Assembly (NCBI GenBank): GCA_017654855.1
Contig: CM030334.1
Span: forward strand, 2,790,001 to 2,854,000
Direction: 5' to 3'
DNA length: 64,000 nt
DNA from: Podospora anserina
Taxonomy: Eukaryota
The notes under the pieces are model-generated. The model did not search any database. It saw only the letters and a list, made by a program, of their open reading frames with translations, and was not told where the DNA came from. Positions 3,123 through 32,365 of the stretch are shown here, in pieces. Each line of letters opens with the position of its first letter. The first letter of the stretch is position 1. The position numbers and the translations under genes were made by a program.

Positions 3123-4514
3123 GGCCAGCAATAACCGAGGATATGATGGAGGGGATTGCAGGAGGGGGCGAAAGAGACAAGTTGGGGGTGATGGCAAGAG
3201 GGAAAGTTAACGAGAGGAGGATAAGAAAAATGCAATGGCCTATGAGATACGGACACTTGGGTGGGCGGGCTGGCGTTAGGCGGGGGCGGGGGGAAGAAAG
3301 TGTGGTTGTTTTTTTTACGTGTATGGGGTGTAATTCAAATGCTGGTTGGTTTTAAGGATAACGGGAATGACTGACAAGCGGCCGGCGTGTTGTGTGGTCG
3401 ACAAGTATGAATATCCTTTTTTGCTTTTTCACATTGTATATAACAGTAGGGGTATATTGCGGGCAGGTGGTCAAGGGACCGAGACTTAAAATGGAAAAGC
3501 TGACTGGTTTGGGAAGAGGAGAGTGATATATGGGTGTGTTCGAGAACAAACCGGGTAGTGCAAATGCCGATGGTGGTGGTCTTTGGTTCGCATGATGGTG
3601 GTTGGTGGTTGGTGGTGGTGGTGGTGGGGGAACCGAACCCCTGGGCCAAGAATGGGGTGTTGGTGGGTGAGGAGGTTGTTACCAGGTTGGTTTATGGATG
3701 TGCCGTGTGGTTGAGACGAGGAGGGCTTGGTAGAAGTGTCCTTGGGTGCTGGAAGATGAAGGATCTCGGTGCGAATTAGAAACCTCTTTCATGGCTACCC
3801 AGCACGGACTAGACTGCAAATGTTACAATCCTGATGAACTTGGCTCGGTGGGTGATGATGGTTTGGAAGTCTAGACATGGCCAGCATGCCATCTCGTCTT
3901 GTTGACCAAAAACCAGGGCATGAAGACAATTTTCTGGTAGCTGTTGAAGCACGGGGCAATATCTGAGACGTTGAAGCTCTTCCTCCCCCTGCATTGAGGG
4001 TCTGTGCGTGAGCTCGCTCCGGGTCACACCCGCCCCGAGGTGAGATCTGCGACTTCGAGGCTGCTGCCGCCAAGCTCTTTTGGCGTGTTGTAAGTCAACC
4101 GAGCTGGGAAGCTTCATCACGTCACATTTGCTTTGCTTGGGGTGAGTGAGGCATGAAGTTTTATCACTGCCCACCCACCCCTCCTCGCGGGTTTGGAGAT
4201 TTTCTCTTTTCTTCCATTTTGCCTGAGTTGTGATCTTGGAGTTAGGCTGAATAATGATGGTCGACGACGAGATTTGCTGAAGTTGTTTCTGTTCTATTCT
4301 CATACCCGCCGGCGCGGTAGATTTTATACGTTCTTTTATACTGCAACAATTTTTTATTCTACAGGGGTTTTGTTTCTTGTTGATATAGATAGGTACCCGT
4401 CCCGCTACTTTCATTTAGCCAGACTGGATTTTGGCCATTCATTCTTTACACAACGACAAACGACACGAAACAAAACATTCGACGGGAACGGGAGAGAAAG
4501 AGAGGCAGAAGGAG

Positions 4515-27765: not shown

Positions 27766-29338
27766 ATGTCGTGGAAAAAGAGCGAGAAGTTGATGGACAC
27801 CATCAGGCATTATGCAAGCTTCCCTGCCACCGGGGTAAGCTTGCGCCAGATGGTCCAGTTTGGCGAGAAGCCATCCAGTGGTAAGTTTGTGGAAGCCTCG
27901 TCAAGTTCTGTCTTTGTTTTGGTTATCCCATATTCTAAGTAACCCAGGTACCCTATTCCGCGCCTCACAGTTCCTCGCCGAAGAGCTCCCCATACGGCTC
28001 GCCCACCGCGTCCAGGAGCTCGAGACGTTGCCCGATGGCCTTAATGAGATGCCATCGGTGAAGAAGGTGGCAGATTGGTATGCGCAGTCGTTCGAGGTAT
28101 GTTTTTACAGAAGCTGTTGTCGCTTTGTTGCCCTGGGTCTGTGGAGCGAGCGCGTAGGGGAGGGGGGGGTAGAATTGCATGACTCACCAGAAATCTTGTT
28201 GGCGTCCAGGAAATCACAACACTACCAAGACCGAACCTCGCCAGAGATGTACGAGAGAGATTAATGAAGCCCGCGCAAATAACCGGAGGGAAAGGAAACC
28301 AATGGCTGAGCGAGGCGACACCGAACCCAAGCATCGAGGAGGGCCAGTACAACTCGTGGACGCCAGTGTCGCAGCAAAACGCCGTCAACAATGGCTGGTC
28401 AAAGGGGAAGTTCCCCGCAACAAGAAGATACTTCGCTATGGTCGACGACACGGGAGACTGGCCGCCCGAGCTGCAGCTTTACAACAAGAGGTTCGCCCAG
28501 ACACTGCACCGCATCAAGAGGAGACACGATAGCGTCGTGACCACCATGGCGCAGGGCATCCTCGAGTGGAAGCGCAAGCGGCAACGGATGCAGATCGACA
28601 ACAATATCCAGTCATTCCTCGATCGCTTCTACATGTCACGCATCGGCATCCGCATGCTGATCGGGCAGCACATCGCCCTGACCGATCAGAGCCACTACCG
28701 GGACCCGTCCTATGTCGGTATTATCTGCACCAAGACGTACGTCAAGGACTTGGCTCAGGAAGCCATCGAGAACGCGCGTTTTGTCTGCGAGGACCACTAC
28801 GGCCTGTTCGAGGCGCCCAAGATCCAGCTCGTGTGCAATCCTAACTTGAACTTTATGTACGTGCCTGGGCACCTGTCGCACATGCTCTTTGAAACGCTCA
28901 AGAACTCGCTGCGTGCGGTTGTCGAGACGCACGGCCAGGACAAGCAGGAGTTTCCCGTCACGAAGGTGATTGTGGCCGAGGGCAAGGAGGATATCACGAT
29001 CAAGGTTTCGGACGAGGGCGGCGGTATACCGCGCAGCTCGATCCCGCTTGTTTGGACGTACATGTACACCACTGTCGACAGGACACCAAACCTGGACCCT
29101 GATTTCGACAAGAGCGACTTTAAGGCTCCCATGGCGGGTTTTGGGTATGGGTTGCCGATAAGTCGTCTGTACGCGAGGTATTTCGGTGGGGACCTTAAGC
29201 TGATCAGCATGGAAGGGTATGTTCATTTTCTTCCCCCTTTTCAACTGTCACAGCATACTAATTTCGGCCAACAGCTACGGCACAGACGTCTACCTCCACC
29301 TCAACCGCCTGTCCAGCTCGTCGGAGCCACTCCAATAG
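27766..29338 (+). CDS. Pyruvate dehydrogenase kinase (PDK/BCKDK family); exons 27766-27880, 27948-28096, 28210-29216, 29275-29338
   Basis: PATGVSLRQMVQFG, EELPIRLAHRV, FLDRFYMSRIGIRMLIGQH, FETLKNS, SDEGGGIP, AGFGYGLPISRLYARYFGG, EGYGTDVYLHL. Confidence 0.95.
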
Positions 29339-29710
29339 CAACCAGTCGTCATGAGGGGTGCTAGAACAACATCCCAAGGATTGACGCTGCCGATGCGGTA
29401 TATCATGCGCAAGCGCCTCAAGAGCCCGGAGCAGCTCGAGGTGACGGAAAGGAGGCAGGTCGGCGACGCCGAGGCTACTATTAATCCCAGTGGGGGCGTT
29501 GCTGATAATGCTTGGTTGAGCGGACGGGGGAGGGACAGTGAGCTCTAGGTGGTGATCTGGTTCCTTTAGCCCTGTCTGCGAGGCTGTCTGCCATTTTCGG
29601 GGTGGCATGATATTTATGTTTTTTTTCTTTCTTTTTTTGGGTATCAGGGAGATTTCATGGAATGGAAGGGAAGGAGAGGGTGGGGGGCGTTATATGGGTG
29701 GGATATGTTA

Positions 29711-29711
<1 letters not shown>

Positions 29712-29775
<64 letters not shown>
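29712..29775. repeat. (CA)32 microsatellite
   Basis: Perfect dinucleotide run read directly. Confidence 0.98.
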
Positions 29776-29778
<3 letters not shown>

Positions 29779-30365
29779 CGCTATATTTTTATGGCATGCA
29801 TGGAAGGGGAGTTGAGAGCAGCAAACCAATGCCAAAGGGGGAGAAAGGATGGGCAGAATACGATTTAAGTCCGCCTTGTCTTGGGAAAAGGGGGGGAAGT
29901 GTCTCTTTTGTCGAAAGTTTCATTGAGGGGGGAAGAGTCACTCGCTGAAATGACTCACCAAAAGGGTGAGAGAGTGACGGGAAGTTTCAAAGTTTGAAGT
30001 CGGAAAGAGAGAGAGGAAGGAGAGAGTAGTAGAATACCCCTTTTTTATCTTATGGTCATTGAAACAAAGTTGGATCCCAAAGTTGGCAAGGAGTAGTAGC
30101 AAGGTATAGTAAAGGAAGGAATATATGGAAATATGAACAAGAAATATTTCCACGATTCTTACATGACAAAAATGTGATGAGTGGAATTTTGATATGTATC
30201 AATTCCATGCCTGCCTTGGTTCAAAAACATGGACTCTTCACCTCAAGAGAAACACCTCCCAAATCATAAACACAACCCAACCTGGTTTGCTTGCAATCTA
30301 TCGCTTTCCTTCCCCCCATTATCACAACACCCCCCCCACCCCCCCCTTCCCCTCTCTCTCTAACT

Positions 30366-32365
30366 CTAAGCCTTGTAAAGAATATCCAAAAAACCCCTCG
30401 CCAACTCGACAACAACACTCTTGTTCGGCAGGCTCCCCGCAACCCCATAAAGCGCAGCGCTATCCCCCACCTCCTTCCCCTTTGCCCCCTTCCCCTCCGC
30501 CACCCTCGCCCGTTCCTTTTCCTTCTCCTGCTCCACCACCGCCTCCAGATCCGCCGCGAGCTTCTCCCACACTTTCACAATCGGCAGCGTGAGCGCGACA
30601 TGAATAGCAGGCGGGTTCTGCAGCGCATTCAAATGCCACCCCTTGGCCGACATCCCGTCGGCAATGTCATAAATATTCAGCGTCTTGCTCTTAAACGCAA
30701 TAACTGATACCAACGGGTTGCCCAAGATCTCCAGCTCTTGCGCCAGAACAGGAGACGTGGTAGTGATGTGAGCGATAAGTTTTTTAGTCGCGCCAACAAT
30801 TTCAATGCACGATTGGAGATACCCGTCCTCACCGGTCGACATCAAACTAGCCCAGCACCCCGCAATGAGGGCGCCAGGACGGGAGCCGGCGATGCCAGGG
30901 GAGGCGTACACACCGCCCGACCAGGCTGGATCGACGTAGTACTGGTAACTCCTGAGCTGCTGCGTCCGGTAGAGGACGGTGCTGTTCCCCTTGGGCGCGA
31001 ACCCGTACTTGTGCGTGTCGCAAGAGATGGACGTCACGCCCTTGAGTCTAAAGTCGAATGGCTGGGTTTCGAACCCCGCTCGGGAGAGGAACGGCACCAG
31101 AAAACTGCCGAGGCAGCAGTCGACGTGCAGGGGAACAGACTTTTTGACTGCCAGTTTGGACAGGGCGGCGATGTCGTCGATGATGCCGTGTGGGAAGTTG
31201 GGGGCTGACCCGACCAGGAGAATAGTGTTGGAGTTGATGAGCCGGGCGATGGCGCGGGTGTCGGCTTGGTAGGTTGGTGCTGGGCAGGCAACCAGGTGGG
31301 TTTTGATCTTGAAGTAGAGACCTGCCTTGCGGAAGGCGACGTGGGCTGTTTCGGGGAGGATCCTAGTGGGGGTTAGAAAAGGGGGGGTGATAGATGGGGG
31401 GGGAAATGGATAGGGGGGGCGTACATCTCAGGCTCAGTAACACCCCTCTCGACGTATGCCTTCTGCCTCGCACTCAAACAAGCCATCAAAATCGACTCTG
31501 TCCCTCCACTGGTGCTCACACCCGCCGCCCCAGCAGGCGCGTTAAACAGCCCCAGCACCATCGCCACCACCTCGGCCTCCATCTTCCTCACCCCGGGGAA
31601 AACATCCGGATGAATAGGATTGGCCACGGTAAACTTCCCATACGCCTCCGTCTGCAGCTTCAGCAGCTCATCCTCGCCATGATAAACCGCGCCCGAAACA
31701 AACCCGTCCTCCCAGCGGGTGTGGTCCATATCCGCCAGCGTCTGCAACTCCTTCCGGACGGCATCCTGGTCCCATCCTTCTTTCGGCAGCGTGAGATAGC
31801 GAGTCGCGTTGAGCGGTACGAGTTTTGTCTGGAGTTTTCCCACTGCTTCATCGACCTGTTTCTTGACTTGGTTTCGCACGCCGGGCATCCGGAGGAAGTA
31901 ACCGTACAGAATGCGGCGGAGGTCGACGTAGAGCTCGACGATTGTGCCGATGAGGCCGCGGCCTTTGAGTTTCCATAGGACGCGACGGGTCCAGCGGAGG
32001 ACGAAGAGGAAGAAGATTAGGTTGCGGGCTCTGTTGTTGTTGGAGAGGGTTTGTCAGTTGTGGAGGTTGGCGCAAGATGGTGGGTAGGTTGGTTGGAGGC
32101 CGAGCTTGGCAATGATATGCAACGCTCGGGGCGGGATGTTATGTGAAAGTTGGAGTGTGGCAGCTTGCATCACAGAGTTGCGTGCTTGGTATAAACCGAT
32201 TCTCCCGAGATAGGTAGAAAAGGGACATGAGAAAAGAGGGAAAAAATTCACTGACAAATCCAAGTTCAACATGCCCAACGCCAACGGGCTCCCCGCCCTC
32301 GACCGATTCCTCACATTGTTGAAGCCCTCCCGCAGGCTAACTGGCATGCGCGATGTGCCAGGCAT
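30366..32365 (-). CDS. DPL1: Sphingosine-1-phosphate lyase (PLP-dependent), 3 exons
   Basis: VSGAVYHG, NPIHPDVFPGVRKMEAEVV, TSGGTESILMA, HVDCCLGSF, SISCDTHKYGFAPKG (PLP lysine), GSRPG. Introns near 32030-32253 and 31362-31424. Confidence 0.93.

Follow-up and report, generated by a model that had tools for sequence, protein, structure and literature searches.

Conserved stop context, frame and hairpin point to translational readthrough at the pyruvate dehydrogenase kinase stop codon of filamentous ascomycetes

Does the pyruvate dehydrogenase kinase (PDK) gene of Podospora anserina end at its first in-frame stop codon, or is this stop a leaky one behind which a second, longer isoform is encoded? 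We addressed this question in a 64,000-nt stretch of the genome (assembly GCA_017654855.1, contig CM030334.1, positions 2,790,001 to 2,854,000), hereafter called the window; coordinates count from its first letter, and all features lie on the forward (+) strand unless stated otherwise. An initial annotation, made from the letters of the window, had read the PDK end as CTC CAA TAG CAA CCA GTC GTC ATG, with the TAG at 29336–29338, and had followed 69 open codons from there to a second TAG at 29546–29548. The sequence is as described: the kinase ends in EPLQ, the 69 open codons are present and the peptide encoded by the extension (29339–29545, QPVVMRGARTTSQGLTLPMRYIMRKRLKSPEQLEVTERRQVGDAEATINPSGGVADNAWLSGRGRDSEL) is identical to the one given there. 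Among related fungi, we found the stop, its nucleotide context, the reading frame behind it, a downstream hairpin and a coding signature to be conserved, and the region is present in the PDK mRNA. We consider it very probable that the PDK stop is a programmed, evolutionarily fixed leaky stop that permits translational readthrough.

The gene 5′ of the stop is a pyruvate dehydrogenase kinase gene, with exon 3 matching the Pfam families PF10436 (2.9e-30) and PF02518 (3.5e-9). It carries the combination of BCDHK_Adom3 and GHKL ATPase domains that marks the PDK/BCKDK family of mitochondrial protein kinases, and the closest solved structures for an orthologue, P0010, were human PDK3 and PDK2 (E values from 1e-81 to 1e-77). 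The transcript was delineated using assembled contigs from four runs of four studies, recognized as RNA because they are spliced; such contigs give neither expression levels nor minor variants nor developmental stage. From the ATG at 27766, the 444 codons of the short form (27766–29335) are distributed over exons 27766–27880, 27948–28096, 28210–29216 and 29275–29335, the last of which continues through the stop to 29338, and are interrupted by introns at 27881–27947, 28097–28209 and 29217–29274 with GT..AG joints. Across intron 2, one run (X3) also contained a colinear contig (28068–28237, 170 nt, depth 6.7) besides the spliced form (depth 11.2), which represents intron retention or pre-mRNA. 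In none of the four studies was there a joint across the PDK stop and the entire extension, both being colinear and unspliced, and the contigs terminate at 29651–29671; in runs X6 and X7, adapter sequence takes over from about 29649–29653 onward. Because the contigs run unbroken through stop and extension to this end, the extension lies inside the mature PDK mRNA, followed by the rest of the 3′ untranslated region (UTR) at 29549–29671. Polyadenylation ahead of 29548, which the initial annotation had envisaged as an objection to an extended isoform, does not apply, as the mRNA reaches about 100–120 nt past that position.

Orthologous loci were collected by scanning metagenome contigs with the pattern ERRQVGD[AV]E, which yielded 209 stretches, 63 of them confirmed by tblastn. 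All but one of these loci (L063, which begins within the tail) hold the PDK last exon, and these 62 together with the window comprise 53 distinct sequences, the basis of the following counts. In 62 of 62 loci, as in the window, an in-frame stop comes directly after a kinase end of the type SSSSEPLQ, and the extension continues behind it without a change of frame. A sense codon at the stop position was found in none of these 62 loci selected solely by the tail motif; because this motif was the only selection, versions with a sense codon were equally findable. The stop itself varies, being TAG in 30, TGA in 17 and TAA in 6 of the distinct sequences. Directly 5′ of it (29333–29335 in the window, CAA for Gln), the codon is CAA in 42 sequences and CAG in 11. 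On the 3′ side, CAA is used in 50 sequences, CCA in two, GAA in one and CAG in none.

The initial annotation had recognized a leaky context of the tobacco mosaic virus type at the PDK stop, and this context proved to be shared well beyond the window. The 9-nt spacer CAA CCA GTC (29339–29347) starts with a CAR-YYA readthrough hexanucleotide, so TAG CAA CCA fits the type I readthrough signal stop-CAR-YYA. Matches to CARYYA occur in 31 of the 53 sequences and matches to CARNBA, reportedly the yeast readthrough consensus of Namy et al. 2001, in 48; in eleven sequences, the match to the tobamovirus signal CAA-TAG-CAA-TTA is exact. Constraint at the level of single nucleotides sets in at the PDK stop. 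Four-fold degenerate third positions 5′ of it are free (information of 0.1–0.5 bits), and those on the 3′ side are almost fixed, giving CAA YNA SCN GTC AYG AGG GR. Within this string, position +6 is A in 53 of 53 and position +9 in 52 of 53 sequences, the Val codon is GTC in 51 and the Arg codon, normally AGG, has G as its third base in 46, and overall RNA-level constraint covers the first ~45 nt 3′ of the stop. Stop and second downstream codon were also seen to co-vary: TGA is accompanied by CAA CGA in 14 of 17 cases and TAG by CAA followed by TTA, TCA, CTA or CCA in 27 of 30, which could reflect shared ancestry or a stop-specific context requirement.

Further downstream, the pattern of conservation is that of a coding sequence. 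The 52 complete extensions measure 57 to 141 codons (median 88), all reach ERRQVGDAE in the PDK frame, and every indel among them preserves this frame despite an enclosed hairpin loop of 5–163 nt. The ratio of nonsynonymous to synonymous substitution rates (dN/dS) in the extension had a median of 0.43 (Nei–Gojobori method, 712 pairs with 0.1 < dS < 2), with values below 1 in 706 pairs and above 1 in six, and entropies at codon positions 1, 2 and 3 were 0.95, 0.85 and 1.38. In the window, the GC fraction is 0.60 over the extension and about 0.47 after 29550. The peptide ERRQVGDAE (29447–29473), which also served as the locus search pattern, is invariant in alignment A3 and is written in many synonymous codons, six being used at the first Arg, five at the second and four at each of Gly, Ala and Val. 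A basic segment preceding it (MRYIMRKRLK, 29393–29422), in which the initial annotation had seen a putative nuclear-localization-like patch (RKRLK), is conserved as MRYxMRKRLK, K46, R47, L48 and K49 being (nearly) invariant in alignment A1, and has AxRAMRLKL as its Dothideomycete-like equivalent. The second stop (TAG, 29546–29548), where the long isoform would end, stands directly after a lineage-conserved C-terminal motif that is DSEL-like in Sordariomycete-like sequences and WW(R/K)NVGMEEG(M/L/V) in others. Phylogenetically conserved readthrough is recognized by a kept stop, a kept frame and coding-type substitutions downstream, and the PDK locus shows all three; the checks that had been proposed for orthologous 3′ regions (stop, context, frame and purifying selection) thus all turned out positive. 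These patterns indicate that purifying selection acts on the extension as a genuine part of a protein.

Between the spacer and the basic segment lies a hairpin with a kink-turn (k-turn)-like internal loop (29348–29385), identified by covariation, slid-strand controls and RNAalifold, its helix beginning 9 nt 3′ of the stop. The 5′ strand consists of GUCA (29348–29351), U (29352), GA (29353–29354) and GGGGU (29355–29359), the loop spans 29360–29370, and the 3′ strand comprises AUCCC (29371–29375), a bulge AAG (29376–29378), GA (29379–29380), U (29381) and UGAC (29382–29385). Across relatives, GUCA-Y-GA-GGGRN is complementary to NYCCC-RAG-GA-Y-UGAC, a stretch that at the same time encodes a conserved S-Q/R-G-L-T, and the two arms enclose the variable loop of 5–163 nt. 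In a DNA alignment of 52 sequences, 93.8% of the hairpin cells were paired, as compared to 20–52% when the partner strand was slid. Compensatory changes were present in five of the nine pairs, and the covariation score of 0.229, against 0.130 in shuffles, was reached by none of 500. The inner helix (columns 26–30 with 205–209) is supported by covariation: it is 90.3% paired with double changes in four of its five pairs, such as one with UA in 17 and CG in 13 sequences, and RNAalifold recovered these five pairs unaided, one of them being UA in 17 and CG in 14 sequences.

According to passages of PMC5061560, a k-turn is defined by a Watson–Crick C helix, a 3-nt bulge and G·A and A·G pairs directly 3′ of it. 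At the sequence level, the PDK hairpin has counterparts to each of these. Its inner helix would be the C helix, the 3-nt bulge is without length variation in 50/52 rows having letters there, the bulged strand reads GA in all 52 sequences and the opposite strand in 51 of them, and the −1b:−1n pair is C:G. The would-be 3b·3n pair is U/U in 42 and C/C in 7 of the 52 and never mixed, a covariation that would be explained by the k-turn register and not by the alternative one and that therefore favors the former. The internal loop thus has the sequence signature of a k-turn, from which a k-turn fold in three dimensions may be predicted. An Rfam search of 29280–29700 returned no family below E = 1 (best E 1.3). 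A covariance model built from our alignment matched the PDK site at 61.4 bits in the 64-kb window, which was part of the training set. Its only other match in the window was an 11.5-bit partial one on the minus strand at 4136–4181 (E 0.045), which is probably noise.

Public protein records extend the taxonomic range. Using the last exon plus extension, with TAG read as W (90 aa), as a HMMER query against 1.84 billion representative proteins, we obtained 16 matches at E values up to 0.001. Fifteen are stand-alone open reading frames (ORFs) of 46–93 aa that match the extension only and start at MRG, MRD, MRE or MRY; the remaining one (P0014), a repeat protein, was discarded. Three members of the clusters of these ORFs, from genomes of Achaetomium macrosporum, Cladorrhinum sp. 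and Diaporthe vaccinii, bear the label ‘hypothetical protein’; in all, at least three genomes annotate the tail as a gene product of its own (KAK4242096.1, KAK4166138.1 and KAL2290143.1). Among longer proteins, the search with a single sequence identified seven annotated PDKs bearing the tail and a profile search 30, giving 33 in all (P0004–P0010 and P0042–P0067). These span Sordariomycetes, Leotiomycetes, Dothideomycetes and Eurotiomycetes, with the taxonomy assigned via four representatives. One of the tail-bearing PDKs is recorded for Quercus suber (oak), probably through fungal contamination. None of the 33 models shows straight readthrough or a sense codon at the stop position. They instead join core and tail by a model intron whose junction differs from model to model, and 26 of them lack or truncate the conserved last strand of the kinase (YGTDVYLHLNRL). 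We read these intron-bypass models as annotation work-arounds rather than splice variants; our preferred explanation is readthrough shared by four classes of Pezizomycotina.

How might such an extension be made? In the parts of PMC3542737 that deal with readthrough signals, UAG-CAR-YYA is described as the type I signal, which is active at UGA and UAA as well. According to the same source, a stimulatory 3′ structure usually begins some 8 nt beyond the stop, and in benyviruses a compact stem-loop accompanies UAG-CAA-UUA. Spacers of at least 8 nt, as set out in a portion of PMC13517186, put stimulatory structures at the mRNA entry channel. Because the PDK element has the hexanucleotide, a structure at about the same spacing and the combination of CAA and stem-loop known from these published signals, we concluded that programmed readthrough is the likely process. 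Most ribosomes would terminate at the TAG at 29336–29338 and release the 444-aa kinase, and a fraction would insert an amino acid via a near-cognate tRNA and read 69 further codons to yield an isoform of 514 aa. The cis signal would have three parts, namely the CAA before the stop, the CAA-NNA hexanucleotide after it (here CAA CCA) and the hairpin at 9 nt, the start of which would be placed at the mouth of the mRNA entry channel. Retention of the stop would fix the ratio of long to short isoform.

An extended PDK isoform had initially been attributed to either readthrough or editing. The isoform and its attribution to readthrough fit the pattern shared among relatives, but editing as the shared mechanism does not. 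Under the editing explanation, sexual-stage A-to-I conversion of UAG to UIG, read as UGG, would remove the stop, and the extension would be made only then, leaving translational readthrough without a real part. In favor of editing, the window and 13 of 13 Sordariomycete-like sequences have TAG, hundreds of stop-loss sites have been catalogued in N. crassa and F. graminearum (sections of PMC11156358 and PMC13123824), stop-loss peptides are known from Sordaria macrospora (an excerpt of PMC6794485), and fungal editing favors U at −1, often at UAG stops (again in sections of PMC13123824 and PMC11156358). However, TGA and TAA occupy the PDK stop site in 23 of the 53 sequences, where the tail is equally conserved, so an editable UAG is not a constant of the locus and UAG-to-UGG editing is not the common mechanism. 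UAA would need two edits, the A of UGA is preceded by G, neither the CAA-NNA context nor a hairpin spaced by 9 nt has a known role in editing, and the minimum-free-energy fold of 29296–29400 places the TAG in a base-paired stretch rather than a hairpin loop. At 29337, A was the sole base in the four RNA contig sets, a weak argument given that minor variants are dropped from such contigs. On balance, editing in place of readthrough is improbable, and it may add to readthrough in TAG-bearing Sordariomycetes including this species. Quite improbable, too, is a tail produced as a separate small protein, by termination–reinitiation or internal initiation at the AUG at 29351–29353 with the hairpin tethering the ribosome. 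ORF callers and three genome annotations already treat the tail as its own gene, and the ATG, with a purine at −3 and a constant distance of 12 nt from the stop, occurs in 42 of 53 sequences; yet the other 11 have ACG (seven), CTG (two), ACT (one) or AGG (one) and nevertheless retain the tail. It is the U of this AUG that covaries with the 3′-arm pyrimidine as strict U/U or C/C, never mixed, so conservation of the AUG is accounted for by RNA structure. The strongest constraints at the locus, CAA on either side of the stop and A at +9, correspond to determinants of readthrough rather than of reinitiation.

Two further explanations dispense with decoding of the stop altogether. Alternative splicing, by which the stop would be removed and the kinase joined to the tail, is how all 33 public models are drawn, and TAG species contain an in-frame GT..AG segment of 51 nt (GTC...CAATAG) that could serve for it. 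This segment does not exist with TGA or TAA stops (23 of 53), its GTCTAC is a poor donor, and the contigs of the four RNA runs are spliced at the three real introns and nowhere near the stop. Since the model junctions are, moreover, species-specific and damage the last strand of the kinase in most cases, as described above, we regard splicing as highly improbable. We assign the lowest probability of all, close to none, to an untranslated 3′ UTR regulatory element with an incidental open frame. It would agree with the RNA-level constraint over the first ~45 nt and with the modest P value of about 0.06 for a 69-codon open tail in the window alone, but not with a frame that survives indels in 52 sequences, third-position entropy of 1.38 against 0.95 and 0.85, a dN/dS under 1 for 706 of 712 pairs, a nonapeptide that stays invariant over many synonymous codons and a conserved position of the second stop.

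Several observations weigh against programmed readthrough or against its generality. That ribosomes read through the stop, and at whatever rate, is an inference, as are the k-turn fold and the function of the tail. As the loci were found via the tail motif, PDK genes without a tail fall outside the sample, an ascertainment effect, and Eurotiomycetes are known here from annotated proteins only. CARNBA is missed by five of the 53 sequences (GAA TCA, CCA TCA twice, CAA CAA and CAA TTG). Three loci keep the tail with an impaired hairpin, L054 being without both arms and L048 and L049 having a damaged 5′ arm. Folding of single sequences gave weak signals (z = −1.5 for the window hairpin, mean z = −0.35 over 53). 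The outer helix is ambiguous: pairing reaches 98% for GUCA/UGAC, which has one double change, and 96.7% for GUC/GAY, which has none, RNAalifold favors the latter, and pairing counts do not separate the two registers. In two loci (L040:498–900 and L046:1091–1500), a second in-frame TAA, at differing codons, interrupts the extension, and ERRQVGDAE...WWKN..MEE(G/A)M still follows it in frame; double readthrough, tail decay or assembly errors are possible reasons. An in-frame intron around this second TAA was considered and rejected, the GT..AG candidates of 37–50 nt being mostly not multiples of three by hand count and the single candidate of 39 nt probably too short. Finally, at least 69 open codons were obtained in 6.1% of 5000 dinucleotide shuffles of 29339–29650, and the open tail of this one sequence therefore exceeds chance weakly (P about 0.06). 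In a crude control that counts exon ends too, tails of at least 69 codons were found for 11 of the window's 69 long stop-to-stop ORFs; counted in any frame, the window contains stop-CARNBA 25 times. The significance of the PDK leaky stop derives from the comparison of orthologues and not from the window alone.

Compared with known systems, the PDK element combines familiar parts in an unusual setting. It shares CAR-YYA after the stop with the type I signal of tobamoviruses, exactly so in the 11 sequences mentioned, and differs from it in belonging to a cellular metabolic gene rather than a viral replicase or coat gene, in its second codon, which is often CGA or TCA (hence strict CARYYA in 31 of 53), and in the added downstream structure. 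The spacer of 9 nt is close to the ~8 nt given in the sections consulted for 3′ structure-stimulated readthrough of alphavirus and coltivirus type II, murine leukemia virus type III and benyvirus type I signals, whereas a loop of 5–163 nt, an invariant GA/GA internal loop and a 3-nt bulge set the PDK hairpin apart from these viral structures. With k-turns such as box C/D and the cores of selenocysteine insertion sequences (SECIS), as far as the k-turn definition quoted above describes them, it has in common the C helix, 3-nt bulge, G·A/A·G pairs and C:G at −1b:−1n, with a candidate further helix beyond them; unlike them, it has an ambiguous outer register. A literature search for a GA/GA-type motif tied to stop-codon recoding yielded SECIS only. 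In contrast to SECIS, the PDK element is situated inside a coding extension right after the stop and not far downstream in the 3′ UTR, and selenocysteine decoding of the PDK stop is ruled out by the TAG and TAA stops. The A-to-I stop-loss of FgDBF2, in the portions of PMC13123824 that describe it, likewise concerns a filamentous-ascomycete kinase that is extended through a decoded stop while the stop is retained; PDK differs from that case in its frequent TGA or TAA stops, in an invariant tail motif as opposed to a generic disordered degron and in a readthrough-type context.

What the tail does is a matter on which we can offer suggestions of low confidence. Fungal glycolytic enzymes reportedly form peroxisomal isoforms by readthrough, with short extensions ending in a peroxisomal targeting signal type 1 (PTS1) (Freitag et al. 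2012; Stiebler et al. 2014). PDK resembles these in being a fungal metabolic enzyme with a conserved extension and a second isoform, but its tail of 57–141 residues ends in -SEL or -EEGM and lacks a PTS1. The PTS1 consensus is a C-terminal tripeptide [SAC][KRH][LM]; the tail ends in -SEL in the window and in -SVL, -GEV, -EGM, -EGL or -EGV elsewhere, none of which fits. The initial annotation had already called -SEL noncanonical, with which we agree, and -SEL-like ends recur in Sordariomycete-like sequences. The end of the fungal short form (LNRLSSSSEPLQ; LNRLSSS) coincides with the end of the alignment on human PDK3 (LKALSSESF, ~379 of the 419-residue chain). Because this alignment stops at the short-form end, the fungal tail occupies the position of the metazoan PDK tail, and the short form is without any counterpart of it. 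HMMER detected no sequence similarity between fungal and metazoan PDK1–4 tails, and the latter are contiguous with the kinase, unlike the fungal tail behind its stop. Dothideomycete-like tails have WW near their end, which resembles the metazoan ‘DW’ motif. No Pfam family was found for the tail, and an ESM Atlas search gave a best score of 0.76, below the useful range. AlphaFold2 modeling of the tail-bearing P0010 (30-sequence alignment A4) was uninformative, with a mean predicted local distance difference test (pLDDT) score of 53 and values below 50 at residues 350–495 and 498–506, which cover the tail; a complex prediction for P0010 core (1–432) and tail (433–506) gave no answer (score 0.00), hence evidence neither way. 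With low confidence, we suggest that the tail may alter PDK engagement with the pyruvate dehydrogenase complex, its stability or its location.

The kind of signal, programmed readthrough with a hexanucleotide plus downstream structure, is already known; new are PDK as an example, the depth of conservation in fungi and the k-turn-like stimulator. Our literature search found no PDK readthrough, no PDK stop-loss site and no RRQVGDAE peptide, with the limit that supplementary lists may name PDK (PMC13123824 Dataset S1, 403 genes; PMC6794485 Data Set S2, 15 events). PDK controls how pyruvate enters the tricarboxylic acid cycle, and a hidden second isoform would be present across four classes of filamentous ascomycetes, among whose members are many pathogens of plants and animals and industrial species and in which protein catalogues and knockout or tagging studies would miss part of the PDK gene. 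The locus also harbors annotation errors, with 33 public PDK models bypassing the stop and at least three genomes splitting off the tail. Few cellular readthrough sites with a defined cis signal are available in fungi, and PDK offers a compact, two-part one made of hexanucleotide and k-turn-like hairpin and backed by covariation. Where one site has kept TAG, TGA and TAA among relatives, readthrough can be told apart from A-to-I stop-loss editing, at present the default explanation for such tails in Sordariomycetes.

A more speculative reading goes beyond readthrough as such. The hairpin could be a true k-turn that recruits an L7Ae-family protein (a relative of Snu13, eL30, eL8 or Nhp2) or docks onto the ribosome, making the leaky stop a regulated switch instead of a constant leak; we regard this as tentative and rather doubtful. 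If true, the PDK hairpin would be the first cellular k-turn-dependent stop recoding signal outside selenocysteine insertion. The tail would then correspond in function to the C-terminal tail by which docking of metazoan PDKs to the pyruvate dehydrogenase complex is governed, the ratio of tail-less to tail-bearing kinase would be set by a k-turn signal, and mitochondrial carbon flux across Pezizomycotina would be tuned at translation termination.

Downstream of the PDK transcript, a (CA)32 microsatellite at 29712–29775 separates the 3′ end of PDK from that of a convergent gene on the minus strand (ORF 30366–31427). RNA contigs end at ~29651–29671 for PDK and begin at 29791 for the convergent gene; the two transcripts may thus nearly abut. 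At position 30157, the window has T and all four RNA contig sets have C at full contig depth. This mismatch, A-to-G on the minus strand, could reflect strain variation or editing within the 3′ UTR of the convergent gene.

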